Origin: Candidatus Nomurabacteria bacterium | GTDB lineage: Bacteria; Patescibacteriota; Minisyncoccia; Phycocordibacterales; UBA9973 | Length of the DNA: 64,000 nt | Assembly: GCA_023898605.1 (NCBI GenBank) | Contig: CP060230.1 | Span: 321,304-385,303 of the forward strand | Reading direction: 5' to 3' | Made by a program: the position numbers and the translations under genes | Shown: piece by piece, positions 8,607 through 51,731 of the stretch | Layout: the number at the start of each line of letters is the position of its first letter | Position numbering within the stretch: the stretch's first letter is position 1 | The notes under the pieces: model-generated | Told to the model about the DNA's origin: nothing | Database searches by the model: none | What the model saw: only the letters and a program-made list of their open reading frames with translations

Positions 8607-9265
8607 ATTTCCAGTTTTTGTGTATTTATTCTACCAACAAGATCTACAGAAGAAGACCAAGAAAGACTCTGATCAGTATTTGATTTAAGTGTTACAACAA
8701 CGCTGTTACAAGGAAGCTCTAGATCGTCTAAAGAAACACAAGAAATTCTGGGCGCTGGGTCAGGCCTTGTAAAAAGGATGGTAACTTCTTTCAATTTGCA
8801 TTCTGGTTCTGCTGTTCCTCCAAAAAATGCACAGATAGAATCTATCTCAATATCTGGATCATCTATGTTTATATAATCTAGACACTCTCCAGACGAACAT
8901 GACCCTATCGCTCCATCTAGGTCAAAAAGTCCGTTTCTTGGGAAGTTGTCTGCAAATTTATAGAAACCTTTTTTATCTTCGCTGTTGAAATATATCCCAT
9001 AAGAAGGTGCAGAAGCAGAATCGTAAGGAAGCCCATAAGAGAACAAATCACTACCCAAAACCCCAGAAACGGCTTGTAGTTGTGTCTCTCTTATATAAAG
9101 AGAGACTTCTTGCGCCAAGTTTTGAAGTGCAACGTTTCTATCAAAAGTTCTGTAACGAAACAAAACAACAAAACTCATAGAGGCAAATATACTTACCACA
9201 ACGATAAGCTCGATAAAGGTCATACCTTTTTCCTCATTTATGTTTTGTTTCAAAAAATTAAACAT
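8603..9265 (-). CDS. Type IV minor pilin
   Basis: N-terminal EKGMTFIELIVVVSIFASM. Confidence 0.6.
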   Translation of the reverse strand: MFNFLKQNINEEKGMTFIELIVVVSIFASMSFVVLFRYRTFDRNVALQNLAQEVSLYIRETQLQAVSGVLGSDLFSYGLPYDSASAPSYGIYFNSEDKKGFYKFADNFPRNGLFDLDGAIGSCSSGECLDYINIDDPDIEIDSICAFFGGTAEPECKLKEVTILFTRPDPAPRISCVSLDDLELPCNSVVVTLKSNTDQSLSWSSSVDLVGRINTQKLEI

Positions 9266-9266
9266 T

Positions 9267-10055
9267 TTATCTAAAGAAGATCGAAGATATTGTCTGGAAG
9301 TCTACCTGGAAAATCAGAACCACTAGTGTTGCAAATACCAAGAATGGGCCAAACGGTACTTCTGTCTTCATGCCAACTCTAGATCTTGAAAATCCCATCA
9401 TCAGGATAGAAACTATAGCTCCAAACCAAAACGATATAAGTAACGCCGAGAAACCTGAAGAAAGCCCCAAGAAAAATCCCATACCGAGCATATACTTCAC
9501 ATCTCCAAACCCCATAAGCCTACCTTTTGAAAGTAGCCAAAGAAGAGCAAACGGTGCGGCAAGAATAGGTCCAGCTAGAATGTTATCCAATATGTCGAAT
9601 CTTTGTGTGAGAAATATTCCGATAAACGAAAGCATGATGAACGAGTAAACCATTTCGTTTGGAATAATCTTGTGCTTCAAGTCATAAAGAGCTATACAGA
9701 TAAGAATAGACACTATCGTTAGATAATAAGAAAGCGCTATAAATAAGTAAAAAGGATCAAACAAGAATCTTCCTGCGATAGAAAGATATACTCCCATAAA
9801 AGTAAGTCCTGTTAGAACTTCTACTAGAAAATACTGTGGTGAAAGATCTGTTTTACAAGTTCTACACTTCCCACCTTGTGCGCAGAAAGAAAATATAGGT
9901 ATAAGTTCATACCAAGACAAAGTTTTGCCACAACTCATACAACAAGATCTACCGCTTCTTCCTCTTCCTGTATTCCATCTTATAACGACTACATTTAGAT
10001 AACTCCCTATAATAGCTCCAAAGATAAATATGATTATGGCTATTAGTGAATTCAT
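9267..10055 (-). CDS. pilD: Prepilin peptidase (A24 family)
   Basis: Tetra-Cys CMSCGK...CRTCK zinc motif, GFGDVKYM catalytic Asp region and multiple TM helices. Confidence 0.85.
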   Translation of the reverse strand: MNSLIAIIIFIFGAIIGSYLNVVVIRWNTGRGRSGRSCCMSCGKTLSWYELIPIFSFCAQGGKCRTCKTDLSPQYFLVEVLTGLTFMGVYLSIAGRFLFDPFYLFIALSYYLTIVSILICIALYDLKHKIIPNEMVYSFIMLSFIGIFLTQRFDILDNILAGPILAAPFALLWLLSKGRLMGFGDVKYMLGMGFFLGLSSGFSALLISFWFGAIVSILMMGFSRSRVGMKTEVPFGPFLVFATLVVLIFQVDFQTISSIFFR

Positions 10056-10056
10056 G

Positions 10057-10563
10057 CTATTTTAGTATTTTATCGTAACATTTGTTACCACTATCTCCAG
10101 CTTGGCAAGCCGCTGTATCAGCTCCCAGTATAGAATAACTGTTGGCGTTACCACATCTATCGATTATGTTGTCACCAGTAGCTGCTATACCAGTAGCAGT
10201 AGAAGTAAAGTCTCCATCTGTTGTTAGAACGGTATTGTCTTGTTCAAGAGAAACTCCAACATGATAGTAACCACAAGCATTTGTTATACCAGAAACTGTA
10301 TTTAATCCTGTATAGTGTATCTCTCCTGGCTGACTTGATATAAAGTTTGGGATAAGTTGATCCATTGTTTTTGGATAATATCCATTTTGAGAGTAGAAGA
10401 TTGCTAGTGCTTTTTCTACCTCTTCCATTTCGCTAACTCTTTTAGCATCACGCCCTCTTGCTCTTGCTGTACTAAGAACAGCCAAAACAATAGACGCAAG
10501 TAATCCTATTATTGCTATAACAACCAGAAGCTCTATTAAAGTAAATCCTTTTTGTTTTTTCAT
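10057..10563 (-). CDS. Type IV pilin (major pilin candidate)
   Basis: N-terminal MKKQKGFTLIELLVVIAIIGLLASIVLA. Confidence 0.8.
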   Translation of the reverse strand: MKKQKGFTLIELLVVIAIIGLLASIVLAVLSTARARGRDAKRVSEMEEVEKALAIFYSQNGYYPKTMDQLIPNFISSQPGEIHYTGLNTVSGITNACGYYHVGVSLEQDNTVLTTDGDFTSTATGIAATGDNIIDRCGNANSYSILGADTAACQAGDSGNKCYDKILK

Positions 10564-10617
10564 AAAAATGAATTAATATTTATTTATATAAATCTAATTA
10601 TACTACAAGTAGTAAAA

Positions 10618-11070
10618 CTATTCACAAGAAGCAACGTTTGATGTAACGCCAGCTATTCCACTTTGCGCAGCTGTACCCTCGCTATCTATACACCAAGTGT
10701 CTCCGTTGTCAGATTTTAGGGGCACAGATATAGCCCAGCTATCAGCGTATGTTCCAGGTCCAGAAGACACGCAGTCAGCGTCTTCTCCTCCGTTTTTCTG
10801 AACAGAGTCTTTTATGGCCTTGTTTATTACTGAGTCAGCAAATATACCAGCATCGCAATCAGAAGATTCGACTTTTGCACCAAAGTGTCCGTAGTCAGAA
10901 AAGTATATGTTGGTTTGAGCCCTCATGTGATTTAGGTTTCCCTTGATAGCAGTGTCAGATGCTTTATCTCTAGCACCATTTAGTGCTGCAATAACAACAC
11001 TAGCCAAAACACCGATTATAGCGATAACTACAAGTAGTTCGACTAAGGTAAAACCTTTGTTTTCTTTCAT
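10618..11070 (-). CDS. Type IV pilin paralog
   Basis: Internal start MKENKGFTLVELLVVIAIIGVLASVV chosen instead of the longer ORF-track start. Confidence 0.7.
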   Translation of the reverse strand: MKENKGFTLVELLVVIAIIGVLASVVIAALNGARDKASDTAIKGNLNHMRAQTNIYFSDYGHFGAKVESSDCDAGIFADSVINKAIKDSVQKNGGEDADCVSSGPGTYADSWAISVPLKSDNGDTWCIDSEGTAAQSGIAGVTSNVASCE

Positions 11071-11156
11071 ATCAATATTAATTCTACAACAAGTCAAAAA
11101 ATAACAAAAGCCACTTTTGAACAAAGTGGCTTTTGTATAAATCAGACTGAGTCTAA

Positions 11157-11576
11157 CTAGTTAGTACAGTCGATATTTGTATCTGAAGTTCCAGATACTG
11201 TAGAACCTGCAGTTGTTGCAGTTCCTGTGTAGTCTACACAGTAGAATGTTCCAGCCTTAAGCTCTATTTCAGCAACCCACTCATCATCGTCAGAAGCACA
11301 AACTGCAGTGTTTCCTGTTGCGTTTCCAGCAGCAGTTATAGCAGCAGCTATAGTTGAGTCTCCTGTACATGCAGAAGCGTAGCTGTTTGAGTTGTTGTCA
11401 TAGTAAAGCTCAAATTGAGGTCTTGCGTTGTTAAGGTTTGATTTTGCAGCAGCATCTGCTCCTTTGTTTCTCGCTGAGTTTAGTGAAGCAAGAACAACTG
11501 AAGCTAGGATACCGATGATTGCAATAACAACCAAGAGTTCTATCAAAGTGAAACCTTTTTCAAAAGTTTTTTTCAT
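11157..11576 (-). CDS. Type IV pilin paralog
   Basis: N-terminal MKKTFEKGFTLIELLVVIAIIGILASVVLA. Confidence 0.8.
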   Translation of the reverse strand: MKKTFEKGFTLIELLVVIAIIGILASVVLASLNSARNKGADAAAKSNLNNARPQFELYYDNNSNSYASACTGDSTIAAAITAAGNATGNTAVCASDDDEWVAEIELKAGTFYCVDYTGTATTAGSTVSGTSDTNIDCTN

Positions 11577-11707
11577 AATAAATTTTATATTACTAGTTTT
11601 ACTTATTAAGGCACTTGATTAACGGCAAGCACCAACCGCTTCTTATAATAACCTTATTCTAGCATAGACGCTTGAAAAATAAGGCAAATCTTCATTGTGG
11701 AAAACTT

Positions 11708-12910
11708 TTAGGCTATTCCACTCGCAATATTATAGATAGGAACAAGTACTGATGTCAAAAGTACACCAACAGCAAGCCCCAAGAAAACAATCATTATAGG
11801 CTCAATCAATCCAACGATAGTATCGACTGCGTCGTCTACCTCTCTTCTGTAGAATCTAGACATTGTTTTTAGTATCTGTCCTATTGAACCAGTTTCTTCA
11901 CCGACTTGAACCATTTGCACCATTATCTCTGGTATAAACTCTTCTCCTTCTAGAGATTTGGACAAGCTATTTCCACCTTTTACTTCTACAACTGCGTTTT
12001 TCATGATTGCTTCATACACTTTGTTCCCTACAACTTCAGCTGTAACTTCTAGAGAACGAACGATTGGGATACCAGAAGAAAGCATTGTTTCTAGGTTGTC
12101 AGATATACGCGCTAGGTATAGTTTTCTAAACAGTCCGCCAAGTATCGGGAATTGTAGTTTTACGTTATCTAGATATTTCTTTCCAGCTTGTGTCCTAGTA
12201 AGCCTAAAGAGCCACAGTCCACCTATGATCACAATAAATAGTACGAAGATTCCGTAGTTTACAAAGAAGTCCGATATACCAATAACTGCTTTTGTATAAA
12301 GTGGTATATCTTGTCCGGACTCTTTTATGATTTCAGAAAGTTTAGGTATAACTGCTGTAAACATCAAAACCATAACGACGATAAATGTGAAAATAACAAA
12401 CGCAGGATATATAAGAGCGTTTCTTGTTTTTGTAGTCAGCGCGTATTGTCTTTCTAGATAGTCAGCTAGGAACAAAAACGTATCAGAAAGTTTTCCAGAC
12501 TCTTCACCCGCTCTAACCATGTTTACATAAAAGTTTGAGAATATACGTGGATGCTTTTCTAGTGCACCAGAAATCTGATAACCAGCCTGAAGGTCATCTA
12601 CTATTTTGTTTAGAGTATTTCTGAGAAGTGTGTTTTTTGCGGTACCTGAAAGAAGAGAGAACGCCTTGAGTGCAGAAACTTGTGCTTCGAAAAGTGTTGC
12701 GATTTGTCTAGAAACGATAACGATATCTTTTAGCGGAACATGCTCGTATATAGAAAGTTCTAGTACATTTTTTTCTTCTTCACTTTTTATACCGGAAACA
12801 ATAAGACCTCTTTTCTGAAGAGCTTGTATAGCAAGATCTTTGTTGATTGCCTCAACTATACCCTCTTTTGTCTTCCCTGTTTGATCTATTGCTTTATATT
12901 TGAAATTCAT
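11708..12910 (-). CDS. pilC: Type IV pilus assembly platform protein PilC (GspF family)
   Basis: 400 aa with two GspF repeats and three TM segments, following pilT and pilB. Confidence 0.8.
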   Translation of the reverse strand: MNFKYKAIDQTGKTKEGIVEAINKDLAIQALQKRGLIVSGIKSEEEKNVLELSIYEHVPLKDIVIVSRQIATLFEAQVSALKAFSLLSGTAKNTLLRNTLNKIVDDLQAGYQISGALEKHPRIFSNFYVNMVRAGEESGKLSDTFLFLADYLERQYALTTKTRNALIYPAFVIFTFIVVMVLMFTAVIPKLSEIIKESGQDIPLYTKAVIGISDFFVNYGIFVLFIVIIGGLWLFRLTRTQAGKKYLDNVKLQFPILGGLFRKLYLARISDNLETMLSSGIPIVRSLEVTAEVVGNKVYEAIMKNAVVEVKGGNSLSKSLEGEEFIPEIMVQMVQVGEETGSIGQILKTMSRFYRREVDDAVDTIVGLIEPIMIVFLGLAVGVLLTSVLVPIYNIASGIA

Positions 12911-16243: not shown

Positions 16244-16843
16244 TTAGTTCTTTAGCCAATAAGTTTTTATAGAAAAACTATACTTGTAACTGTCGTTTAC
16301 GACCCCCGCTTGTGTTGTTGTATAAAGTGATGAGAAAGAAACATCTGTCACGTCAACTACTCTCAAGCTACTTTCTAGGTCAGATAGGAATGCTAGGAAG
16401 TTTTCATATGATCCTTCTGTAGAGAAAGAAAGTGTCGACTCAGAATAATCTCGGTTCAGATATGCTAGTTCCGCAGGAGTGATTTTGCCGATTGGTGCAC
16501 CGTTTGCATCTGTCTCTTCTTTGTCTGGAGAAGCATAAGAAACTTCTTTTACAATCATTCCATACTGAGCTGCGATTCTCTCTATTTCTATGATAAGTCT
16601 TATACTATCTACGTTGTCTGGAAGAAGTTTTTCTACTCGATCTAGGTCACTATCGTTGAAGTTGCTGTATTTTTCTGCGAGTGCGTCTCTTATCTCTTGC
16701 AATTCTCTTGCATTTTGGAGTGCTTCATCATATGCCAAAGCTTCGACTTTCATAGTCTTGATTTCTTCGTACATAGGTCTAGTGAACCCGACAAAGGCTA
16801 GCACTGATCCGACTATAAGTAATATTGGTAAAATAAATCTCAT
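16244..16843 (-). CDS. pilO: PilO-like pilus assembly protein
   Basis: Single N-terminal TM, a coiled-coil and a C-terminal domain. Operon position after pilN. Confidence 0.5.
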   Translation of the reverse strand: MRFILPILLIVGSVLAFVGFTRPMYEEIKTMKVEALAYDEALQNARELQEIRDALAEKYSNFNDSDLDRVEKLLPDNVDSIRLIIEIERIAAQYGMIVKEVSYASPDKEETDANGAPIGKITPAELAYLNRDYSESTLSFSTEGSYENFLAFLSDLESSLRVVDVTDVSFSSLYTTTQAGVVNDSYKYSFSIKTYWLKN

Positions 16844-16845
16844 AA

Positions 16846-17517
16846 TTATTGAACTTCAAAGTTAGTTAAGTCTTCTGTTGATCCACTCTCTACTGTTTCT
16901 GTCATAACATCTCCCCCGTCAAGATTTCTTTCGTAAAGCAAGAACTTCGGATCAACTGTAAAGTCGAGGTCGAAAGTAACGCCACCTTTTGAATCAAGAG
17001 TTGGGTTGTAGAAAATCGGGTCAATAAATGCTCTTTCTTCTTTGAGTGCATCGGACTGAAGTGCAATAGAAGTGTAGCTTTTTGCTTTACCTTTGAGTGT
17101 TACAAGTATTGTTCCTGCGTTTCTTTCTGGTACAGAAAACTTGAAGTCAGTAAACTGAACTGATTGTAGAGTAAGTGCTGAAAGAGTTTCCATGATAGGA
17201 CTTACTGTTATGTGGTTTGCCAGAACTTCACCCGCAGCAGATAGTCTCCTGTCTAGGTCTTGTATCTCTTCGATAAATCCTGGTTCGAAAGATTCTTGTG
17301 CTCTTTTCAAACTGTCAGCTTTGCTTGCGATAGAAGAAGCTACTGAACCCTTGTAGAAATATGTACCAACTGCAAGAAGTATAGAAGCAAAAAATATAAT
17401 AGTAGAAATAACATTCAAAACAGGGACCGGCTTCTCGCGAGTCTTCTTACTACTAGGAGTAGTCAGTGGTTGTTTTGGTATGAATGATGTTTGATAATCT
17501 CTCTCTAGTGGAGGCAT
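16846..17517 (-). CDS. pilN: PilN-like pilus assembly protein
   Basis: Single TM helix ISTIIFFASILLAVGTYFY after a short cytoplasmic N-terminus. Follows pilM. Confidence 0.5.
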   Translation of the reverse strand: MPPLERDYQTSFIPKQPLTTPSSKKTREKPVPVLNVISTIIFFASILLAVGTYFYKGSVASSIASKADSLKRAQESFEPGFIEEIQDLDRRLSAAGEVLANHITVSPIMETLSALTLQSVQFTDFKFSVPERNAGTILVTLKGKAKSYTSIALQSDALKEERAFIDPIFYNPTLDSKGGVTFDLDFTVDPKFLLYERNLDGGDVMTETVESGSTEDLTNFEVQ

Positions 17518-17637
17518 ACTAAAATTGAATTGGGTTTCTTAGAAAAACCTTGATATTAAAACCCTTATATAGAAAATTATAGCATGCAAAAAGAGATATT
17601 ATGCAAAACAAATATAAGAGTTATACACAACGCCCTA

Positions 17638-18756
17638 TTATTCTAGTATTCTTAGTGCCAATCCTGTCGCTACTGCGAACTCTGGACCAGCTTCTTTTAG
17701 AACATCTTTGAGAAAAGCTGGAGATTCTACTTTGTCGAACGCTGCGCCGAGCTCTATATCGCTCTTGAAAACAGCTTTTGCGTATTGGTCTAGTCCTTTC
17801 AATAGTGAACCTGCACCAACAAATATGATTTTTGAAATTGGTCTTTGGTATTTTCTTTCGTAAGTAGTTATAACTGTGTTTACTTCTGAGAAGATATAAT
17901 CTATCGATATCTTGGCAACGTCTGAAACTTTTCTATCTTCTCCGATACCAGTTAGTCCTATATCTCTCTTGGCTTTTTCTGCAGATTCGAAGTTCATAGA
18001 AAGACTTGTAGAAATACTGTTTGTTATGTCATGTGATCCACGATTTATAACGTGGAACAATCTAACTATCCCGTACTCAACTATTGTAAGTTTGCTTTTC
18101 ATCGCACCGATATCTACAAGTAGTACAGTCGAAAGTTCATGATTGAGCGAACTCCTGATAGCAGAAAATACTTCTATCTCTAGTAGTTCTGGTGATATGT
18201 TTGCAGTTTTTGCAACGTTGCTATATTTCTCTAGAGTTTCGTTGTGTATCGCTGCAACTAATATATCTTGCTTTGCACCAGAATCTACAAACTCTGAGTC
18301 ACCTCTTTCGGCTTCTCTTTCTGGTATCTGCCAGAAGTCTAGTGCGACTTCACTTATCGAAACCGGTATGTACTTTCTCGCCTCTGTTTCTATAACAGGT
18401 CTTAATTCTTTTTCTCCGATAGTTTTCGGTAGTGACAAAACGAAAATCAAACTCGCTGAACTTGGCACAGCAAGTCCTGCGCGCTTGGTTGTGACGCCAG
18501 ATTCTCTGATCACGTCAGCAAGAGCTTTGGAAAGAGCTTCTTCTGGAAGATTTGTTAGTTTACCGACTTCGGCGCTCGCATACGGACCAAGCGAAAGAGT
18601 CCCATACGTTTCTAGCAGAGCTTTGCCTTTCTTCTTTTTGATCTGAACAACTTTGATAGAAGAAGATCCTATATCTATACCGACAGCGCTTTCTTCTTTT
18701 GGTTTCGAAAAAGCGGCTTTTCCCAAAGAAAAAATTTTATTAAGTGGATTATCCAT
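17638..18756 (-). CDS. pilM: Type IV pilus assembly protein PilM (actin-like ATPase fold)
   Basis: 372 aa with ...GIDIGSSSIKVVQI... and an FtsA/actin-like fold. Confidence 0.8.
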   Translation of the reverse strand: MDNPLNKIFSLGKAAFSKPKEESAVGIDIGSSSIKVVQIKKKKGKALLETYGTLSLGPYASAEVGKLTNLPEEALSKALADVIRESGVTTKRAGLAVPSSASLIFVLSLPKTIGEKELRPVIETEARKYIPVSISEVALDFWQIPEREAERGDSEFVDSGAKQDILVAAIHNETLEKYSNVAKTANISPELLEIEVFSAIRSSLNHELSTVLLVDIGAMKSKLTIVEYGIVRLFHVINRGSHDITNSISTSLSMNFESAEKAKRDIGLTGIGEDRKVSDVAKISIDYIFSEVNTVITTYERKYQRPISKIIFVGAGSLLKGLDQYAKAVFKSDIELGAAFDKVESPAFLKDVLKEAGPEFAVATGLALRILE

Positions 18757-18802
18757 AAAGCCTTTTGTGCTACGATTGTACCATATAAAGGAGAAAAACT
18801 AT

Positions 18803-19444
18803 ATGAAACTAGGAGGATTTTTTGGAAAAATACTTTTTACAAAACGATGCATTTCCTGCGAGAAAGAAGGCTCTTATTTCTGCAAAACCTGTATAGACAA
18901 AGTCCCGAGATCTATACCACTCGGTAGCGACACCTACCCACTCTTTGAATACAGAGACATATATATGACAAAGGCTTTGTGGCAGATGAAGTATCTCTCC
19001 CGCGACAGTATCGCCGAAACTTTCTCGGAATACATACTCGAAGAAATAGAAAACATAATTCTAGAAAAAGCGTTGTTTGAAAAAATCGGCCAAGTAACGA
19101 TAGTACCGATACCGATGTCCGAGAAAAGAAAAAAGAAGCGTGGTAAAAACCACATAAAAACTCTGGCAGACTTTGTTTCAGAAAAAAGTTCCTACCCCGT
19201 TTCGGATATTTTGATAAAACACAAAGAAACAGATCCGCAGGCGAGAATAAAAAACAGGAGCAAAAGGCTCAGAAATGTTTCTGGTTCGATGAGTTACAAA
19301 AAAGATTCTGAAAAAGATATCGTAGGAAAAACTGTCATTCTGATAGATGACATCATCACAACCGGTGCGACGATAAACGAAGCAAAAAGAGTCCTCAAAA
19401 AACTAAAACCAAAGAGTGTGATTACGATAACGATTGCGCATTAA
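18803..19444 (+). CDS. comFC: ComF family protein (ComFC, phosphoribosyltransferase domain)
   Basis: Start moved to ATG 18803, which follows an AAGGAG RBS. N-terminal CxxC...CxxC zinc finger, C-terminal PRTase motif VILIDDIITTGATINEA. Confidence 0.7.
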   Translation: MKLGGFFGKILFTKRCISCEKEGSYFCKTCIDKVPRSIPLGSDTYPLFEYRDIYMTKALWQMKYLSRDSIAETFSEYILEEIENIILEKALFEKIGQVTIVPIPMSEKRKKKRGKNHIKTLADFVSEKSSYPVSDILIKHKETDPQARIKNRSKRLRNVSGSMSYKKDSEKDIVGKTVILIDDIITTGATINEAKRVLKKLKPKSVITITIAH

Positions 19445-19478
19445 AAAAGAGGGGTCTCATGACCCCTCCGGACTTTTG
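19445..19478 (+). terminator. Rho-independent terminator after comFC
   Basis: GAGGGGTCTCATGACCCCTC hairpin followed by a T-run. Confidence 0.55.
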
Positions 19479-19732
19479 TCGTTTGTTTGTTATTTTCCCA
19501 TACGGCTCACTTAGGGAGGATTAATAAACCTTTACGATTGATAAAAAGGACACCCTCCGGCCTATGCATATTGGCAGTATATATACCACCCAAAGAACAA
19601 AAGTCTTTTTCAATATAACAGAACTTTATTCGAGGAACAATTTGTGCTAAAGTCTCAAGTATTCGAGAGAATATGGAGACCTGCCTACCGGCAGGCAGGC
19701 GTGGCTCAGCCACGTTCAATAAAATAAACATT

Positions 19733-19819
19733 GGAGACGTGGCTGAGTGGTCGAAAGCGCCTCACTGCTAACGAGGTGTCCCGTCAAAAGGACCGTGGGT
19801 TCGAATCCCACCGTCTCCG
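19733..19819 (+). tRNA. tRNA-Ser (anticodon GCT), long variable arm
   Basis: Acceptor GGAGACG/CGTCTCC, anticodon loop CTGCTAA, variable arm TGTCCCGTCAAAAGGACCGT, T-arm GGGTTCGAATCCC. Confidence 0.8.
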
Positions 19820-19849
19820 CAATAAATCTGACCGCACCCCGCCACAATT

Positions 19850-19948
19850 TGTCTGGGGAAAATGAGGCGGAGTGCTAATGCGGACTCGCCCGCGCAGACC
19901 CCCCAGACCCCTCCTCCGCGCGGGCTTCACTTTTTGTTTTTTGGACAC
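19850..19948. repeat. Partial copy of the 200-nt repeat family. Contains a GC-rich hairpin plus the left 31-bp inverted repeat of the SDR cassette.
   Basis: CAATTTGTCTGGGG segment; hairpin GCCCGCGC-AGACCCCCCAGACCCCTCCTCC-GCGCGGGC at 19888-19925; GCGCGGGCTTCACTTTTTGTTTTTTGGACAC is inverted at 21231-21261. Confidence 0.6.
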
Positions 19949-20000
19949 AGGCGCAAAACATGAAAAATCACTTTAAAAAATGTTAATATAAGGGCACGAT

Positions 20001-20867
20001 ATGGATTTTCCTAAACAGACAATTTTAATAACTGGCGCAACAGGGGGATTAGGAAAGGTGCTTGCAAGGGAGCTTGCTAATAAAAGCAGTACTTTAATTC
20101 TAACTGCTCGAGAAAAAGAAAAACTTGAGTCTTTAAAAAAAGAACTTGAACCTTTTTATGAAAAAATTATCATTCAGCCAGCAAACCTTTTAGAAGATGA
20201 AGACCGAAGAAAAATTGAAGAATTAGCAAAGGAAACCACTATTCTTATAAATAACGCAGCAATTTTCGGAACAGACATAAAATCAGTTGGCGAACGAGAT
20301 ATAAACGAAGAATCGAATATAAATAAACTAAATGTCCAAGTGCCGGGCCGATTATCATTTTTTGCTCTTTCTAATATGAGAGATAAAAAATACGGAAGAA
20401 TAATAAACGTTGGATCCACTTCTGGTGTATTTAAATACACTGGTAGAAGTTCATACAGCTGTTCAAAAATAGCATTGTTAAGGCAAACTGAAACTGTTAA
20501 CCAAGAAATAATTGAGAGTATTGGTGGTGATTATAAAGATAAAGAAACTGATAAGTATATTGACGTCTTTGCTTTTTATCTAGCCCCAGGTCCAATGGAA
20601 TCAAGTAAAAGCGCTGAAGAAGTAATATTAAAAAGAGCTGAAAGTTTAAACGTATCAAAAGACGAAATGGCAGAAAAATATAAAATGTATGAAAATGCTA
20701 ATACTGGTGAAAAAACAATGCTTGATTCAAAAGCAGTTGTTGAAAAAGTTATCGAAATATTAAAGCCACTAGGGCAACTTGAATATAAACAACGTAAAGA
20801 GATTAATGAGATCATTACAGATTTTCCCCCATACTCTCTTATTAAAAAGACAAAAAGTCAGAAGTAA
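20001..20867 (+). CDS. Short-chain dehydrogenase/reductase (SDR) family oxidoreductase
   Basis: N-terminal TGATGGLG Rossmann motif and a YxxxK-like catalytic region; 288 aa. Confidence 0.7.
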   Translation: MDFPKQTILITGATGGLGKVLARELANKSSTLILTAREKEKLESLKKELEPFYEKIIIQPANLLEDEDRRKIEELAKETTILINNAAIFGTDIKSVGERDINEESNINKLNVQVPGRLSFFALSNMRDKKYGRIINVGSTSGVFKYTGRSSYSCSKIALLRQTETVNQEIIESIGGDYKDKETDKYIDVFAFYLAPGPMESSKSAEEVILKRAESLNVSKDEMAEKYKMYENANTGEKTMLDSKAVVEKVIEILKPLGQLEYKQRKEINEIITDFPPYSLIKKTKSQK

Positions 20868-21230
20868 ATATTTTTTATGTTAAATTTTGAAAAAAAATAA
20901 AATTGAACAGATAAAGAGAGAAGCACAATCAAAAGATGCTCTGTTAGAAGAACTAGAAAACGTCAAATCCTAAGAGTTATTAAAAAATATACTTTTAGAG
21001 CTTATTGAGTTTAAAGAATGGAAATCAGTTATTGAAAATATAGAAAAGTTCTCAATAGATGATCAAAAAGAAGTGGCCATTAAAATAATCGAAAACGGTG
21101 GAGTGGAACATATTGAATTAAATTTGCCAGTGTTTAATTCTCAAATTCAAGGTGAAATTTAAAAAGCTGTCTTAAAAAACCTTGAATCAAAGTGCGTGCT
21201 AAACTCATTAACTTACTTTTGATTGCGTCT

Positions 21231-21415
21231 GTGCCCAAAAAACAAAAAGTGAAGCCCGCGCAGACCCCCCAGACCCCTCCTCCGCGCGGAACACAGCCGA
21301 GGTTTTGCGAATCCGTGTCCCCAGAAAATTGTTTCGCAAAACCGAGTCCATTTTATTAGTTTTAATCATTTGGATTTTGCTCGAAATAGTTTCGAACTTT
21401 GTCTAGTAAGTACCG
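21231..21415. repeat. Copy of the 200-nt repeat family, same orientation as the 52017-52219 copy, including the right 31-bp inverted repeat of the SDR cassette
   Basis: About 85% identical to 52058-52215. Compensatory changes keep both stems paired: GGTTTTGCGAA/TTCGCAAAACC versus GGCAGGGCGAA/TTCGCCCTGCC. Ends on an ACCGCA core at 21407-21411. Confidence 0.65.
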
Positions 21416-21485
21416 CAGTAAGAACTTATTATCGGCGTGACCCACAGGCTTAAGATTGTGGGGCGACCCGAATACATACAATAAA

Positions 21486-21528
21486 ATCAGCCCCATCACG
21501 CCGAAGCATGATGGGGCTGTGACTTTTT
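21486..21528. terminator. Bidirectional terminator hairpin
   Basis: CAGCCCCATCACGCCGAAGCATGATGGGGCTG with T-runs on both sides. Confidence 0.5.
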
Positions 21529-21542
21529 GGTCGCTGAGGCCG

Positions 21543-21887
21543 CTAATCTTCGTATCCTAAGAGTTTGCGCTCCTCAGGGGAAAACTTTGCAACAGCTTTC
21601 TTCTTGATGTCGAGAGCTTCTGCCTCGTCGTCGAAGAGCTTCACCGGATTCTGGTCTTCGATAACGTAACCGATGGTTCCGTCAGTCAACACCAGAGCTT
21701 GCCCTGTCTTGTGCCAGCTTGCGTTCTTTTGTACCCCGGCGAATGCCGATGCGATATTTGGATCCTTGAAGAATCCGAGCGAGCTGGACTTTAGGCCGTC
21801 ATCGTCCACGCGGTAGACCTCGGTCATCTCGACGATCTTGAAATCTCTGAGATCTTTCCCGACCAATTCTTTGATTTTGGTAGCCAT
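21543..21887 (-). CDS. Hypothetical protein; local GC clearly above the surrounding sequence
   Basis: 114-aa ORF in a GC-richer segment (21420-21900) next to the repeat elements. No recognisable motif. Confidence 0.45.
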   Translation of the reverse strand: MATKIKELVGKDLRDFKIVEMTEVYRVDDDGLKSSSLGFFKDPNIASAFAGVQKNASWHKTGQALVLTDGTIGYVIEDQNPVKLFDDEAEALDIKKKAVAKFSPEERKLLGYED

Positions 21888-22095
21888 AATTACCTCCTTT
21901 GTTTAGGTTGACTGTCTGAACGGGATACTACCAGATATATCCCGATAAGTCTAGAATCTAGAGAAAACTGACCTAGACCCGCATACCTATTTCAAGCTCC
22001 AAAAGTCTGCTAAAATGTCCTTATGGGGTCTCGCCAATTTGGTACTGAACCCCACGTGGTCTACGACGGTAAAAAACTGATGCTATACTACCTTA

Positions 22096-22458
22096 ATGGA
22101 AAACTTGACTGACACGATTAAAAAACTAGAACTATCTCTGCTAAAACCAGAAGTTCGGTCTTCAAAAGATATGTTAGACAAACTTATCGCAGATGACTTT
22201 ATTGAATTTGGAACATCGGGAAACAAATACACAAAAAAAGACATTTTGGATAGATTGCCAAATAGTCCAGAAGACGCAAGATACCAGGCAAGCGATTTTT
22301 CTATTGAGATGTCCCCAGAAAATTTTGTAGTTGTAAAATTTAAAACTAAAAAAATAATAAACAAAAAAGAAACAATCTTTTCATCCCGAGTTTCCTACTG
22401 GAGAAAAACTGATTTGGGTTGGCAAATTTTCTACCACAAATCTACTCCTATTATTTAA
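22096..22458 (+). CDS. Hypothetical protein, SnoaL/NTF2-like (DUF4440-like)
   Basis: 120 aa. Starts within a duplicated 26-nt promoter-plus-start motif (see findings). Confidence 0.45.
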   Translation: MENLTDTIKKLELSLLKPEVRSSKDMLDKLIADDFIEFGTSGNKYTKKDILDRLPNSPEDARYQASDFSIEMSPENFVVVKFKTKKIINKKETIFSSRVSYWRKTDLGWQIFYHKSTPII

Positions 22459-22481
22459 TTTGTTGATGCTATACTACCTTA

Positions 22482-23066
22482 ATGGAAAAACCAAAGGTTA
22501 GATTTATATACGCTTATCCTCTAGATGTATCTAGAAGAAACTTAGCAGAAGAAAGAGGTATAGATTATCCTTCTGTAGAAAAAATAATAGAAACAAAAGA
22601 TAACTGGGAGAGGTTATGGGAATCATTCGAAAAAGAAAATAGTGTAATCAATCTTATACAAGAAATTACAAAAAATACTCCAGACAGGAGCCTAGAGTGT
22701 TTTGTTGTAGGCGGCATGATGAGTTCGATGTCTGCCCCGTTTATCGTAACTACACTAAGAAGGGGTGCCGATCGAAGTGATGAAGACTTTATAGATACAA
22801 TGATTCACGAACTTCTTCATATATTTCTATCTAAAAAGAAAAGTTACTTTTCTTTTCTTGGAAATAAATACGAGGCAGAAACAAAACTGACACAAAACCA
22901 TATACCAATATATGCCATGCTAGAAAAAATTTATGAGGAAGTATTTAAATCTAAACCATTAGATTATTCTAGAAATGATATACCGGTTGATTACCAGAAA
23001 GCAGTAGATATAGTAAAAAAGGAGGGTTATAAAAATATATTGGAAGATTATTACCAAAATATATAA
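22482..23066 (+). CDS. Hypothetical protein with an HExxH motif
   Basis: 194 aa containing ...DTMIHELLHIF..., a possible metallopeptidase-like site. Shares the duplicated 26-nt start-region motif. Confidence 0.4.
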   Translation: MEKPKVRFIYAYPLDVSRRNLAEERGIDYPSVEKIIETKDNWERLWESFEKENSVINLIQEITKNTPDRSLECFVVGGMMSSMSAPFIVTTLRRGADRSDEDFIDTMIHELLHIFLSKKKSYFSFLGNKYEAETKLTQNHIPIYAMLEKIYEEVFKSKPLDYSRNDIPVDYQKAVDIVKKEGYKNILEDYYQNI

Positions 23067-23071
23067 TTAAA

Positions 23072-24115
23072 ATGGAAAAAGAATTTGATCAATCTAATAC
23101 AAAAACATGTCCAGCTGGATTAATTGATCTTTTTAATAAAACATATTCTGAAAGATTAGAAAATTGTATACCACTTGAAGCACATGCATCCACAAGAAGA
23201 TATTACATACTAAAATCAAAAAGTTACGAAACATTGGGTGCTACGGGCGATGACCCACAAGAAAACAAGGCCTTTGTAAAACTTGCGAAACATTTAACAA
23301 AAAATGGTGTTAACGTGCCTAGAGTTATTTCACACACCGATGATTATAAATTCTATATACAAGAACTTTGTGATCAAGTAGATTTATTTTCTCTTGTAAC
23401 AAAATATCCAGAAAAACAAATAGAACTTTTAACAAAAGCGATTGATCTTCTTGTAAATTTTCAAAAAAAAGGAACTATTGGATGGGATTATTCTGATTCT
23501 TATCCATTTAAATCTTTTGATTCAAAAGAAATAAATAATAACTTTAAAAGACTAAGTGAATATTTATTGGGAAGCATAAATATAAGTTTCAATAAAAAAA
23601 TCCTTGATGATTTTGAAAAAATCTTAATAAGAGAAATAGAGTCAATACCGAAAAATGAATATGTACTAATGCATAGGGATTTTCAATCTAGAAACATACT
23701 TATAAACAAAGAAATTTATACACTCATAGACTTTCAAGGATCAAGAAGTGGCCCAAAACATTATGATTTGGCATCTTTACTATTCCAGTCTAGAATAAAT
23801 TGGAAAAAAGAAAGTCAGGAATATCTTTTAAATTATTATTTAAATCTTAATAAAGAAATAGACGATCGAGATCTTTTTATTAAAAATTTCTACTTTTTGG
23901 GAGCTGTGAGAATAATACAAGCACTTGGATCATATGGAATAGCAATTTATTTAAACAATAAAAAATCCTTTCTAGCTAGTATAACGCCAGCCTTAAAAAA
24001 CTTAAGGGAAATTACTGAGGTTTTAAATAAAAGATACAAAATAAATACTGATAAAACAGTAGAATTAATAGACGAATTAATAATATTTTTTTCTAAAAAT
24101 GATACATCTATATAG
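23072..24115 (+). CDS. Aminoglycoside phosphotransferase (APH)/choline-kinase-like kinase; possible anomeric sugar kinase, AmgK-like
   Basis: 347 aa with an HRDFQSRNILI catalytic loop (HxDxxxxN) and a downstream IDFQGS (DFG-like) motif. Confidence 0.6.
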   Translation: MEKEFDQSNTKTCPAGLIDLFNKTYSERLENCIPLEAHASTRRYYILKSKSYETLGATGDDPQENKAFVKLAKHLTKNGVNVPRVISHTDDYKFYIQELCDQVDLFSLVTKYPEKQIELLTKAIDLLVNFQKKGTIGWDYSDSYPFKSFDSKEINNNFKRLSEYLLGSINISFNKKILDDFEKILIREIESIPKNEYVLMHRDFQSRNILINKEIYTLIDFQGSRSGPKHYDLASLLFQSRINWKKESQEYLLNYYLNLNKEIDDRDLFIKNFYFLGAVRIIQALGSYGIAIYLNNKKSFLASITPALKNLREITEVLNKRYKINTDKTVELIDELIIFFSKNDTSI

Positions 24116-24488
24116 CTTTTCTTATAAAAAGAGTGCGAGAGTAGAACATGATCCAGAATCATTGCAATATATTTTTGATTGTAGACCTATACTAAACCCA
24201 GGAAGAATACCGGATCTTTTGCCCAAAAATGGAAAAGATAAGGATGTGATAGAATATTTGGAAACAAAAACAAAAATGCCAAAATTTATTGAGTCAATAA
24301 AAGGTATAGTAGAAATAGCCGTTGAAGAATATTTAGAAAAAAAAGAAAGATACAAAGAATTACATATTTATTTTGGTTGTACGGGTGGACAGCATAGATC
24401 TGTTTACTGTGCAGAAAAAATAAAATCTTATATAGAAGAATATTTTAAATTGGAATTATTATTAACCCATAAAGAATTAAAAAGTTAA
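24099..24488 (+). CDS. RapZ/YvcJ C-terminal-domain-like protein
   Basis: 129 aa containing ...IFDCRPILNPGRIPDL... and ...YFGCTGGQHRSVYCAEKI..., resembling the conserved C-terminal region of RapZ-family proteins. Confidence 0.45.
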   Translation: MIHLYSFSYKKSARVEHDPESLQYIFDCRPILNPGRIPDLLPKNGKDKDVIEYLETKTKMPKFIESIKGIVEIAVEEYLEKKERYKELHIYFGCTGGQHRSVYCAEKIKSYIEEYFKLELLLTHKELKS

Positions 24489-24493
24489 AAATT

Positions 24494-25210
24494 ATGAAAT
24501 TAGTTGTATTGGCAGCGGGAAAAGGATCAAGATTTTACCCCATAACAAAAAAAATACCGAAGGGGCTTGTCCCAATATTAGGAAGGCCGATGCTTGAGTA
24601 TGTATTGGCGCCATATATGGATCATATTTCCGAAATAATAATGGTTGTTAATAGTGACCTCGGACACCTTATAAAAAATCATTTTACAAACGAATACAAA
24701 GGAAAACCAATTACGTATATAGTACAACCAAATGAAGGTCCAAAAGGGACTTTTTCTTCTCTAAGTTTATGCAAAGATCATCTGAGTGATAATGATGTTT
24801 TTTGTGTTTCAAACTGCGATGATTTACTCGAGCCAAAACAAATGAAAGAAGCTCTGAAATCAAAAAAGATAGGCCTTGGTGTTACAAAGTCTAAAATGCC
24901 TTGGTACTATCTTGGTATAAAAACTGACAACGGAATAGTAAAAGGTTTTGAAAGATACTCCAAAGAAAATGGTGAATTTATAACAAACGACTTTGCAAAT
25001 GGATTTTATATTTTATCCAAAGGTGTACTTGATTTTAAACCAGTAGAAACAAGAGATGGTGAACATGGTTTGCCGCAAACAATTTTTGAAAATATTAATT
25101 CTTATGAAATGGAAACCCACCAAGTTGATGAGTGGCAGGCAGTAAACGGACCAGATGACCTAGAAAATGCAGAGTTATTTGTGAAAAAACACTTCAGTGG
25201 ATTAAATTAA
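24494..25210 (+). CDS. Sugar-phosphate nucleotidyltransferase (MurU/GlmU-N-like)
   Basis: N-terminal MKLVVLAAGKGSRFYPITKKIPKGLVPILGRPMLEYV, an NTP_transferase signature; 238 aa. Confidence 0.7.
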   Translation: MKLVVLAAGKGSRFYPITKKIPKGLVPILGRPMLEYVLAPYMDHISEIIMVVNSDLGHLIKNHFTNEYKGKPITYIVQPNEGPKGTFSSLSLCKDHLSDNDVFCVSNCDDLLEPKQMKEALKSKKIGLGVTKSKMPWYYLGIKTDNGIVKGFERYSKENGEFITNDFANGFYILSKGVLDFKPVETRDGEHGLPQTIFENINSYEMETHQVDEWQAVNGPDDLENAELFVKKHFSGLN

Positions 25211-25211
25211 A

Positions 25212-26024
25212 ATGGAAAAAGAACCTACCAAAAATAAAATTATAGAAATAGAGCCTCGCGGTTCGTATTTCGAAGTCGATGAAGAAGGATATCTCATAAA
25301 TCCAGCGAGCGAAGAAAAAATCCAAGAAAAATGGCGTCCCGTGATAGATGATGTAGTAGAACTATACAAAGATGCCTATGGTGACAAACTAAAGCAAGTA
25401 TATATAAGAGGCTCTGTTGCAAAGGGTGAAGCAGTAGAAAACGTGTCAGACATAGACACTTTCGCTATTGTAGATTTATCAAAAGAAGACTTGAATGTAG
25501 CAAAAGAAATAAAAGATGCTAGAAAAGAATTAGAGCAAAAATATCCTTTTGTAAACGGTATAGAATTTGAACCAAGGTTAAAATCTAATTTCAATAAAAA
25601 CGATATAATACTTTCTCAATCTCTTTGCATACATGGAGAACCGCTTGAAACACCAAAAAGAAAACCTGGAAAAGAAATGTCTATACATGCAAGCTATATA
25701 AAACAGAATCTAAGCTGGATTAAAAATTTTCTAGAAAAAGATGAGAGTGAAGAAGAAATAAAAAATGCTTGCACTTGGGTCACAAAAGTAATTCTGCGAA
25801 CTGGTTTTGAAATAACAATGGAAAGATCCAAGAGGTATACTCGTGACTTATATAAATGTTACGAAACTTTTAGAGAATACTATCCGGAAAAAGAAGAAGA
25901 GATGCGAGAAGTCCTACACTACGCTCTGAACCCAACAAGTGACAAAGAAAAGATACGAGAAATAGTTGGTGGTATAGGTCAATGGCTCCTAGAAGAGTCC
26001 AAAGAATACTTCGAGGGCAAATAA
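25212..26024 (+). CDS. Nucleotidyltransferase, ANT(3'')/ANT(9)-like (minimal nucleotidyltransferase plus a C-terminal helical domain)
   Basis: hG[GS]...DhD motif in IRGSVAKGEAVENVSDIDTFAIV; 270 aa. Confidence 0.5.
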   Translation: MEKEPTKNKIIEIEPRGSYFEVDEEGYLINPASEEKIQEKWRPVIDDVVELYKDAYGDKLKQVYIRGSVAKGEAVENVSDIDTFAIVDLSKEDLNVAKEIKDARKELEQKYPFVNGIEFEPRLKSNFNKNDIILSQSLCIHGEPLETPKRKPGKEMSIHASYIKQNLSWIKNFLEKDESEEEIKNACTWVTKVILRTGFEITMERSKRYTRDLYKCYETFREYYPEKEEEMREVLHYALNPTSDKEKIREIVGGIGQWLLEESKEYFEGK

Positions 26025-34856: not shown

Positions 34857-34867
34857 TTTTTGCTTAT

Positions 34868-35010
34868 TGTGCCCTCACTGCGTTATCAAGATTATTCAGT
34901 GCGTGCACTGCGAATTTTTATAAGATAAAAGTGCGTGCACTGCGAATTTTTATAAGATAAAAGTGCGTGCACTGCGAATTTTTATAAGATAAAAGTGCGT
35001 GCACTGCGAA
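34868..35010. repeat. Tandem direct repeat, 32-bp unit in about 4.5 copies, with no spacers
   Basis: The unit GTGCGTGCACTGCGAATTTTTATAAGATAAAA occupies 34899-34930, 34931-34962 and 34963-34994. A partial unit spans 34995-35010 and a degenerate copy lies at 34868-34898. Confidence 0.85.
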
Positions 35011-35025
35011 GCTTTAGCGAAGCAG

Positions 35026-35410
35026 TGGAAATGGGGGGAATCGAACCCCCGTGCAACAACTTCTCTACTATTCGTCTACATGTTTATTTCTATTTCGTAT
35101 CTCGATTACAAACTAAAAAATAGAACAAAACCGATTGTAATCTAACTCAAAATTTTTCGTGTCAGAAAGAGAGTGGCTTCCAGACCTTATCTCAGAAAGT
35201 ATTATACCCGTTATATCCACCCTGAGAAAAAGATATAGGGGCAGCTAGCGATTTATACGCGAGCGTAAGCAAAATCGTTCATACTAAAGTATGGAGATTT
35301 TACTGAAAATGCTTTTGCATTTATGTTTTGTGTCAAACTTTTACGAAAATAGGACACTTATTCGACATGCAAAATAACAAAGACGGCTATTGTCGATACC
35401 GATCATTCCC
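35026..35410 (-). ncRNA. ssrA: Candidate tmRNA (ssrA)
   Basis: The minus strand ends ...GGGGGTTCGATTCCCCC-CATTTCC-A (T-arm plus 3' acceptor strand) and begins GGGAATG-ATCGGTATCGAC, whose first 7 nt pair perfectly with CATTTCC. The gene is about 385 nt and lies immediately downstream of smpB. The tag ORF was not resolved. Confidence 0.5.
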
Positions 35411-35437
35411 CTAAATCATTTTGCTTTGCAAAATGAT

Positions 35438-35610
35438 CGGGCGAACATTTGCTTTATCAAGCAAATGTTTTAGCCATAAATCTTATATCACATTGATATA
35501 AGTCGGGCGAACATTTGCTTTATCAAGTAAATGTTTTAGCCATAAATCTTATATCACATTGATATAAGTCGGGCGAACATTTGCTTTATCAAGCAAATGT
35601 TTTAGCCATA
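35438..35610. repeat. Tandem direct repeat, 66-bp unit in about 2.6 copies, each containing two hairpins
   Basis: Units at 35438-35503 and 35504-35569, with a partial unit from 35570. Internal palindromes AACATTTGC-TTTATCAA-GCAAATGTT and ATATCA-CAT-TGATAT. Confidence 0.8.
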
Positions 35611-35621
35611 TAAGTAACTTC

Positions 35622-35885
35622 TTATGAGTTACTTTGTATATAACTTTTCAAAATTTTACTTTTTTCTCTTGCGCCCCAAAGACTTTTTAGAAACCTTTCT
35701 CGTTTGAAGGCCTCTGATTTATTATCAAAAATTTCTTTTTTAATCAAAACAATAGGTCTTCTGTTTTTGGTTGATTCCACAAAACCTGAATTATGTCTAA
35801 TCAATCTTTTTTCTAAATCAGAAGTACAACCAACATAAAGCTTCTTATCTTTTTCACTAAAAAGTATATATACAAAGTAACTCAT
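35622..35885 (-). CDS. Small GIY-YIG nuclease-domain protein
   Basis: MSYFVYILFSEKDKKLYVGCTSDLEKRLIRHNSG...; 87 aa. Confidence 0.65.
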   Translation of the reverse strand: MSYFVYILFSEKDKKLYVGCTSDLEKRLIRHNSGFVESTKNRRPIVLIKKEIFDNKSEAFKRERFLKSLWGAREKSKILKSYIQSNS

Positions 35886-37662: not shown

Positions 37663-37677
37663 GATTACCTAAAACAC

Positions 37678-37718
37678 ATTCTAAAAACACACCCGGCGAA
37701 AGTCGGGTGTTTTAGTTT
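37678..37718 (+). repeat. 41-bp direct repeat containing a terminator-like hairpin, copy 1
   Basis: ATTCTAAAAACACACCCGGCGAAAGTCGGGTGTTTTAGTTT; an identical copy lies at 38201-38241. Confidence 0.8.
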
Positions 37719-37731
37719 AAAATAGTACAAC

Positions 37732-38205
37732 TTGACTTTTTTATTAAATTATTATACAATAATGAAAAATAAACAAGCTCTTATGAAAAGATTACTGCTT
37801 TTTATATTATTCCTCTTAATTATTGGAATAATATTTGTACTTCCCAAAATGATTCCAGAAAAGAAAAGTGCTAAATTCAAGGAAGTGGCAAGAATTGTGG
37901 GGGTCGACACGTTGGAAGGGTTCTCTAGTCTGACCACTGGCACTCCCCCAAAAATTGTCATACAAATAGACTTCGACGATGACAACATTGAAGATGTACG
38001 GTCTGTATATGATGTTAGTCAAACTCCTGACCACGTCAAAAATGCCATAGAGTGGTACGAACACACAAGGATACTTCCTGAGCACTATCAATACCCCTGT
38101 ATTGTAAAAGTAAGTGCAACAAGAAATTCTGATTTGGTGGTCATTACTGACCACGCAGAAATACTTACCGACATAGACGGGAACTATGTCGGGTACACAT
38201 TCTAA
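37732..38205 (+). CDS. Hypothetical secreted or membrane-anchored protein
   Basis: 157-aa ORF; the likely start is the internal MKNKQALMKRLLLFILFLLIIGIIFV signal-anchor. Flanked by the 41-bp direct repeats. Confidence 0.4.
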   Translation: MTFLLNYYTIMKNKQALMKRLLLFILFLLIIGIIFVLPKMIPEKKSAKFKEVARIVGVDTLEGFSSLTTGTPPKIVIQIDFDDDNIEDVRSVYDVSQTPDHVKNAIEWYEHTRILPEHYQYPCIVKVSATRNSDLVVITDHAEILTDIDGNYVGYTF

Positions 38206-38241
38206 AAACACACCCGGCGAAAGTCGGGTGTTTTAGTTTGC
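38201..38241 (+). repeat. 41-bp direct repeat, copy 2
   Basis: Identical to 37678-37718. Confidence 0.8.
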
Positions 38242-50837: not shown

Positions 50838-50839
50838 AG

Positions 50840-51730: not shown

Positions 51731-51731
51731 A

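Follow-up and report, generated by a model that had tools for sequence, protein, structure and literature searches.

Introduction

The element considered here is a cassette at positions 19821-21417 of a 64,000-nt stretch of contig CP060230.1 from a Candidatus Nomurabacteria bacterium (the window), and the described systems closest to it are serine-integrase elements, the tRNA islands of tyrosine integrases, and tycheposons. Serine-integrase elements such as Listeria A118/LI, phiC31, Bxb1, and SPbeta carry a large serine recombinase (LSR) with resolvase, recombinase, and zinc-ribbon domains and use short sites, in which attB has the motif for the zinc-ribbon domain (ZD) 5 bp nearer the central dinucleotide than attP does (PMC3783163). 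The tyrosine-integrase islands cataloged by Islander have a tRNA gene at one end and the native flank displaced to the far end; according to the 2014 Islander paper, no serine integrase was known to use tRNA genes as targets (PMC4383910). Tycheposons of Prochlorococcus are small cargo elements at the tRNA genes of streamlined genomes, and a minority of them encode LSRs (10.1101/2020.12.28.424599). Here we report that the window cassette is very probably the stranded, partly decayed, recombinase-less cargo of a family of small LSR integrative elements that sit at tRNA-Ser 3' ends, mostly in genomes labelled Patescibacteria.

This family resembles each of the described systems in part. Like serine-integrase elements it has an LSR of the same domain composition and short sites, and the distal motif on its element side lies 5 nt further from the center than the one on the host side, as in attP relative to attB. 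Unlike them it targets a tRNA 3' end, no phage or transfer/conjugation genes were seen in the cargo modules examined, its LSR has no close relative in IMG/VR, and an integrated copy keeps an intact, inverted putative attP within two nested pairs of inverted repeats. It shares with Islander islands the tRNA gene at one end, the displaced native flank, and tandem accretion (at locus L048), but its integrase is of the serine type and its distal repeat is no true tRNA fragment, only a look-alike that has two motifs in common with the tRNA, spaced 5 nt wider. Tycheposons, in turn, mostly use tyrosine recombinases, have replication modules, and belong to another phylum, and neither nested inverted repeats nor a tRNA-end look-alike has been described for them (10.1101/2020.12.28.424599).

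Other systems also bear comparison. Integron gene cassettes, at which no search was specifically aimed, depend on attC, attI, and the tyrosine integrase IntI, whereas here the recombinase is serine type and the cassette ends are repeats of a family that we call R. An invertible DNA switch is expected in both orientations, and this cassette is found in only one; neither a target-site duplication nor a cognate transposase, the features of miniature inverted-repeat transposable elements (MITEs) and insertion sequences, accompanies it. In the yeast 2-micron plasmid (Flp/FRT) and in recombinase-mediated cassette exchange, two inverted recombination regions part the recombinase from a cargo segment, and a cassette between inverted sites can be swapped by cassette exchange in either orientation. 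One pair of our loci (L015 and L018, below) looks similar, but this is a resemblance only: the 2-micron system is a tyrosine recombinase on a plasmid and laboratory cassette exchange is an artificial system, both unlike the elements described here.

Results

The window cassette is bounded by two copies of one repeat family

We use R for a 203-nt repeat, X for the ~120-nt inverted repeat around the LSR, primes for inverted copies, L-numbers for fetched homologous loci or contigs, and P-numbers for homologous proteins. The cassette directly follows tRNA-Ser(GCT) (19733-19820, plus strand; ARAGORN; Rfam, 60.3 bits), whose 3' end, ..CGTCTCCGC, is the attachment point. It consists of a truncated inverted R copy, a gene for a short-chain dehydrogenase/reductase (SDR) at 20001-20867 on the plus strand (Pfam adh_short, 1.2e-24), a pseudogene at 20877-21207 on the same strand, and a full-length R copy at 21217-21417. 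This right copy comprises an inner arm (21223-21253), hairpin 1 (21254-21289), hairpin 2 (21301-21343), and a tail (21391-21417), and it ends in ACCGCA (21412-21417); over its distal 92 nt it has 88% identity to R as represented by the two perfectly identical, inverted copies at 52017-52219 and 49243-49445. Alignment identifies the left stretch, 19821-19956, as a second R copy on the minus strand that lacks its last ~58 nt and with them any tail motif, leaving hairpin 2 (~19830-19886), hairpin 1 (19888-19925), and an inner arm (19926-19956).

All features listed in the original prediction, which had been made from the sequence alone, are present, and six observations hold: the inverted repeat, the hairpin, the right repeat copy, the genes, the tRNA, and, in our analysis, the enrichment of a loop motif. 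Some have changed in meaning. The inverted repeat, seen as 31 bp, extends to 42 nt at 93% identity when repeats are compared within the window (19915-19956 and 21223-21264), and a 23-nt piece of its core occurs there exactly twice against 0.00 expected from shuffles. It had been set apart from the 200-nt repeat copies; both exist, but the arms are the inner end of R and no separate feature, and the left side is an R copy as well. The true cassette boundaries are 19821 and 21417. The GC-rich hairpin GCCCGCGC-loop-GCGCGG, at 19888-19923 on the plus strand and at 21254-21289, is a 36-nt direct repeat of 100% identity, so that the loop has the same orientation on both sides, as had been noticed, and the left apex is flipped relative to its own arm. 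The loop motif CCCCAGAC occurs seven times in the window, always within R copies, against 0.53 expected. An ACCGCA at 19832-19837 was considered as a second crossover core and rejected, being part of the hairpin-2 stem and conserved in L092.

The same cargo lies in a complete element elsewhere

The SDR protein is rare, and a homolog with 96% amino acid identity (P0121, on contigs L092 and L093) is encoded within a complete element that runs from tRNA-Ser(TGA) through X, LSR, X', a 53-nt tail', an R head, the SDR gene, an intact 109-aa open reading frame (ORF), and a second R head to a tail. Window positions 19824-21289 match L092 9819-11292 at 90.6%, with 93% nucleotide identity to L092-L096 over the interior, and the differences in the SDR gene are scattered single-base changes. 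Relative to the intact partner ORF (L092 10876-11205), the window copy carries one frameshift (a 1-nt insertion) and two nonsense codons; thus the roughly 300 bp of decayed coding sequence that had been pointed out after the SDR gene are a true pseudogene. The SDR gene itself is intact and probably expressed from its own promoter.

Comparisons among contexts define the ends of the element. Over the 1761 nt that run from X' through the end of R, contigs L094 and L095, which were recovered from different samples, agree with L092 at 100% identity, and the sequences part directly beyond ACACCGC; thus the same element occupies two chromosomal contexts with a nucleotide-exact boundary. For the window, L103-L106, which derive from a relative with 81% nucleotide identity, match the flank from CCGCA at 21413 onward and carry upstream of it a different island (diversity-generating retroelement [DGR] reverse transcriptase, methylase, and terminase), so that the right end of the cassette is a genuine attachment-site boundary. 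The sequence at 21418-21530 (plus strand) is native DNA that was once located downstream of the tRNA and has been displaced by the insertion. It is homologous to the L103-L106 flank and contains a terminator-like hairpin (21488-21519), as do several outer flanks in the family and as is expected for displaced sequence native to the downstream side of a tRNA gene. We sought the empty tRNA-Ser(GCT) site by way of the upstream ComF-like gene; exact matches ended before or inside the tRNA, and a metagenome scan returned only relatives of 30-37%.

Several observations concern the surroundings. A motif, TATCGG.GTGACCC, followed by a small hairpin is common to the window (21433-21447), the c-site flank of L006, and L103-L106, three otherwise unrelated loci. 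Next to the cassette, 21543-21887 encodes a 114-aa protein that has 76 homologs, most of them on short contigs (0.6-3 kb) and out of synteny; this protein may itself be island-associated, and exact look-ups of it and of its 100% match P0241 returned nothing. Contig L092 carries, a few kilobases from its SDR element (16794-20867), a second serine recombinase of 460 aa, a Transposase_mut gene, and a DGR-type reverse transcriptase with bAvd. Finally, a public contig of assembly GCA_024236335.1 (L001) aligns with the window from 19821 to 25593 (5773 nt), and all 12 differences between the two fall within 21467-21724 (260 nt), with none in 19821-21466 or 21725-25593.

Island 2 and its relatives show the full architecture

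The original prediction had likened the cassette to a second island at 48.9-53.9 kb that has a recombinase, and this comparison is borne out. Island 2 (49.2-53.9 kb) has the layout of the cassette plus an LSR between its own X repeats, and in both cases an inverted R, cargo, and a forward R are placed at a tRNA-Ser gene, with the outward tail in direct orientation to the tRNA. Its cargo module (49243-52219, minus strand), with 2.6 kb of cargo, holds genes for a 443-aa protein, an EamA transporter, and a helix-turn-helix (HTH) protein between R(-) at 49243-49445 and R(+) at 52017-52219; no homolog of this cargo DNA was found in any fetched locus. The recombinase module (52215-53853, plus strand) consists of X (52215-52334), the LSR gene from 52354, and X' (53734-53853), the X pair being 120 nt long and 100% identical, and it adjoins tRNA-Ser(GGA) (53850-53935, minus strand; ARAGORN and Rfam), the attachment point. 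The LSR has the Pfam domains Resolvase, Recombinase, and Zn_ribbon_recom. Its reading frame continues through X' into the tRNA gene without a stop (53734-53916), and X apparently has two roles, upstream leader and C-terminal coding sequence, because homologs cover 92-100% of the 520-aa query.

More than 7,500 homologs of this LSR were found, of which the best 120 are 81-96% identical and come from metagenome-assembled genomes (MAGs) whose labels span many different Patescibacteria lineages. When GTDB species genomes were scanned, relatives turned up in at least 268 species, mostly labelled Patescibacteria, and 80 loci were kept; most are short-read MAGs, some with doubtful taxon labels (Gammaproteobacteria, Bacteroidia). 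X-LSR-X' adjoins a tRNA-Ser 3' end in most of these 80 loci with enough sequence, and among the loci fetched all tRNA-Ser isoacceptors are represented as element sites (anticodons TGA, GCT, GGA, CGA, and ACT). ARAGORN assigned the unusual anticodon ACT to tRNA-Ser genes in L034, L053, L055, L061, and L069, several of them directly beside an LSR module. On the far side of the LSR from the tRNA, X adjoins the tail of an R copy. Both repeat pairs are present in the 26 loci with enough upstream sequence, where the inverted R partner is 1.5-6.4 kb away, R arms of ~90-280 nt are 95-100% identical, and X arms of ~120 nt are 74-100% identical, about half of them at 100%. Between loci, R and X both diverge.

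The cargo varies widely, including a cytochrome cd1-like protein, a glycosyltransferase, a T5orf172 protein, an AAA_13 ATPase, a UvrD helicase, an EamA transporter, and the SDR, yet 27 of 36 surveyed cargo segments start with an HTH gene of 64-73 aa beside the LSR-proximal R. Orientation is strongly biased: the LSR is convergent on the tRNA in nearly all loci (L073 being the exception) and 26 of the 27 HTH-led operons face the same way, which makes free flip-flop unlikely. Cargo and recombinase have nevertheless moved apart. L015 and L018 share an R-cargo-R module that is 98.5% identical (99.95% in the interior) and inverted, with breakpoints at the tail ends, whereas their LSR modules are 84.6% identical; likewise, L017 and L020 have 95.6% identical cargo and 87.9% identical LSRs. 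Thus, movement of the tail-bounded cargo module is uncoupled from that of the recombinase module.

A few loci depart from the standard layout. Five (L034, L053, L055, L073, and L078) have a real tRNA-Ser in place of the R tail upstream of X, and in four of the five a convergent pair of tRNA-Ser genes encloses X-LSR-X'; L073 has an inverted R copy on the far side, which leaves its LSR in the opposite orientation to the standard one. These arrangements may have arisen from chromosomal inversions via the internal site. In L048 a second LSR element, also with Resolvase, Recombinase, and Zn-ribbon domains, is attached to the tail of an inner element; this stacking and the LSR modules between convergent tRNA-Ser genes suggest that the internal sites are in use. 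L031 contains a paralogous LSR with the same layout at tRNA-Ala(GGC). This paralogous element (8632-12062) stands beside the first and has a 154-nt inverted repeat pair around a gene for a 447-aa membrane protein and a 132-nt inverted repeat pair around the second LSR, which adjoins the tRNA; its tail resembles the tRNA-Ala 3' end, including CCACCA.

We found no description of this family in the literature searched, the coverage of which was incomplete, so that an earlier description is possible. The family is one of serine-recombinase tRNA-Ser elements for which we found no prior account, and the window cassette is a degenerate member of it.

The R tail resembles the tRNA 3' end with a 5-nt offset

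R ends in 26 strongly conserved nucleotides, TTCGAA, 16 nt, and CCGC, a tail motif present in most loci (21391-21417 in the window, plus strand, as the outer attR-like boundary). The end of the tRNA-Ser genes has the T-loop TTCGAA, 11 nt, and CCGC, and the two motifs are thus exactly 5 nt further apart in the tail; the tRNA-Ala paralog in L031 has the same offset. Apart from TTCGAA and CCGC(A), the distal repeat shares nothing with the tRNA. The tail motif is paired in every locus in which both ends were found, and a lone tail occurs only in the window cassette. Because the offset matches the shift of the ZD motif between attP and attB (PMC3783163), we assign the tRNA end to the B arm and the R tail to the P arm. 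The offset is consistent with the geometry rule for the two sites, with TTCGAA as the putative ZD-binding motif. On this assignment, tail-X would be attP, tRNA-X attL, and tail-flank attR, and comparison of junctions brackets the likely crossover to within CCGC. An odd consequence is that the integrated element retains an intact inverted copy of the putative attP, X'-tail'. A crossover inside the T-loop TTCGAA was considered and rejected, since identity at the junctions begins at CCGC, and an RNA-guided role of the two CCCCAGAC loops was set aside after inspection gave no convincing complementarity to the attachment sites.

The R heads form two predicted hairpins. Across 13 diverse copies the share of cells that pair is 96.7%, compared with 75.2% for shuffles (0/500) and no more than 54% for slid controls; compensatory changes are seen in 11 of the 19 pairs, and the R-forward strand has a few G-U pairs. 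The loops are conserved as TTCCTCCCCAGACCCCTCCT and CCCCAGA(C)AAATTGT, and the apex of hairpin 1 is a mirror-repeat pyrimidine tract that occurs in either orientation among subtypes. It is plausible that the R heads act as transcriptional insulators or terminators at both ends of the cargo. The idea stays a suggestion, since these hairpins, with loops that are too long, were not called as terminators by a simple scan for promoters and terminators. A search of Rfam at gathering thresholds returned nothing at R.

Other repeats in the window

Three further sets of repeats were noted. A tmRNA gene (35025-35410) lies between tandem repeats of 32 nt in four copies and 66 nt in three copies (34866-35016 and 35437-35634). 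Two consecutive genes are each preceded by a copy of a perfect 26-nt direct repeat (22078-22103 and 22464-22489). Another perfect direct repeat, 45 nt long and with a terminator-like hairpin (37674-37718 and 38195-38239), recurs at a distance of 521 nt.

Discussion

Taken from the tRNA outward, a complete element reads tRNA-Ser 3' end (..CCGC), X-LSR(antisense)-X', inverted R (tail', head'), cargo operon, R (head, tail ..ACCGC), and native flank. In the mechanism that we propose, the LSR would recombine attP, the R tail joined to X, with attB, the tRNA-Ser 3' end and its flank, by crossing over in CCGC; the R tail would be a P arm that carries the TTCGAA and CCGC of the tRNA at a spacing 5 nt wider, and the heads with their two covarying hairpins and C-rich loops may insulate or terminate transcription. 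The cargo module between two inverted tails is, as the locus comparisons show, an exchangeable unit in its own right. The window copy keeps such a cargo module and the outer attR-like end, but its LSR module and inner tail are gone, and the tRNA therefore adjoins the R head directly, at about R position 143.

The window cassette retains the R head with two covarying hairpins and CCCCAGA loops, the tRNA-Ser 3' end site with the outer R tail in direct orientation and native flank beyond it, and cargo homologous to that of a complete member. It departs from complete members in having neither an adjacent LSR with ~120-nt X repeats, as island 2 does, nor a pair of near-identical inverted R copies each with a 26-nt tail: no recombinase ORF and no similarity to X were found in 19821-21417, the arms have, besides the hairpin stems, 42 nt in common at 93%, and only the right tail is present. 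Further differences set it apart. The right R switches after hairpin 1 from the L092 type to the island-2/L066 type, the hairpin-2 subtype differs between the left and right copies, the left hairpin-1 apex is flipped against its own arm while the apices in L092 are properly inverted, and the tail spacer has diverged from the consensus at several positions. The absence of LSR, X, and inner tail, the mismatched arms, and the dead gene lead us to regard this copy as a stranded cassette.

Several points weigh against this interpretation. Recombination was not directly seen, and the crossover in CCGC and the roles of attP and attB are our reading of the sequences. No standard product of attP x attB or attL x attR recombination yields a junction of tRNA and R head, and a secondary deletion of the inner tail must thus be assumed: the left junction possibly arose when loss of the LSR module left a tRNA-tail' quasi-palindrome that was later trimmed. 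A similar truncated tail' beside a pseudo-tRNA-Ser end is seen in L030, and a regex search for an intact tRNA-tail' junction found none in any locus. The junction of tRNA and cassette (19760-19821) is spanned by no independent public contig, L001 starting exactly at 19821. Lastly, because short-read MAGs prevail, assembly may partly account for how repeats of 120-280 nt are oriented and for their perfect identity.

Among the alternatives, the one that fares best, though we consider it improbable, is that the cassette is a still-active satellite, excised and reinserted in trans by the island-2 LSR through the directly repeated tRNA end and R tail. The tRNA and the tail each terminate in a directly oriented CCGCA, cargo modules in the family do move independently of LSR modules, and the break of contig L001 exactly at the tRNA end, together with the single-nucleotide differences clustered just outside the cassette, could reflect heterogeneity in the population. 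Against this, the left site has no P-type arm, neither X nor tail', the tail spacer is off consensus, and the arms are mismatched and one of the genes is a pseudogene. An active satellite predicts an empty-site junction CCACCGTCTCCGCAGTAAGAACTTATT (..CCACCGTCTCCGCA joined to GTAAGAACTTATTATCGG) and a circle junction in which the tail ..GTACCGCA is joined to AATAAATCTGACCGC. The suggestion in the original prediction that the cassette is mobilizable holds at the level of the family, in which the same cassette is part of a complete LSR element and cargo is swapped between LSR modules; the window copy looks decayed and is probably immobile by standard reactions.

We consider it still less likely that the SDR cassette is an invertible, phase-variable segment flipped by the island-2 LSR or by homologous recombination so as to switch expression, the other possibility that had been raised. 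Inverted repeats do flank it, an LSR is encoded 31 kb away, and the whole cargo module of L018 is inverted relative to L015. However, the SDR gene has one and the same orientation to the tail and outer flank in the window, in L001 (the only assembly spanning both ends), and in all intact relatives (L092-L095), and only 1 of the 27 HTH-bearing cargo segments in the wider family is inverted. The case of L015 and L018 is better read as module exchange, given how much closer the two are in cargo than in LSR. Furthermore, the gene start and the AT-rich region upstream of it, apparently including the promoter, lie inside the segment, so a flip would not switch expression, and the arms that would recombine are short and imperfect.

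The remaining two explanations are both very unlikely. A chimeric assembly, in which mis-joins at repeats created the mosaic right R and the direct 36-nt repeat, might be suspected from public short-read contigs that break at that repeat (L002, L003) and at the tRNA end (L001), but the independent MAG contig L001 includes both hairpins and the right junction and matches the window throughout the cassette. A MITE-like or composite transposon with R copies as terminal inverted repeats for a transposase would account for long inverted repeats around variable cargo, but the flanks (CGCA|AATAAA and ACCGCA|GTAAGA) show no target-site duplication, the repeats in the loci examined have no transposase linked to them and the neighboring recombinase is an LSR, the ends coincide with the tRNA 3' end and its look-alike, and R copies in the window are confined to two tRNA-Ser sites, those of the cassette and island 2.

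For the window itself, the stranded-cassette interpretation says little more than that the SDR gene was acquired as cargo and has become stranded. Our findings also bear on serine integration more broadly. We put forward, as a tentative proposal that we hold with rather less than even confidence, that the family represents an undescribed serine-integrase design, specific for tRNA 3' ends (Ser, with a paralogous clade at Ala), with a look-alike attP arm and a second, live inverted attP maintained by nested perfect repeats. The look-alike with its 5-nt offset would be a natural example of the geometry rule for attP and attB. The recombinase and the putative attP and attB can be read from the sequences, which makes the system a candidate genetic tool for these bacteria and, if the design is as proposed, an off-the-shelf means of integration in organisms whose genetic manipulation is very difficult.

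Bacteria of the candidate phyla radiation have tiny genomes, and to our knowledge gene exchange among them is poorly understood. If the proposed design is correct, each integrated copy would be a landing pad that permits cargo swaps in either orientation, stacking of elements, and chromosome rearrangement between tRNA-Ser genes, and the window cassette would be the footprint of the loss of an LSR module. Because LSRs that are 80-96% identical occur across MAGs with many candidate-phylum labels, this family could be a major cross-lineage gene shuttle in these episymbionts.

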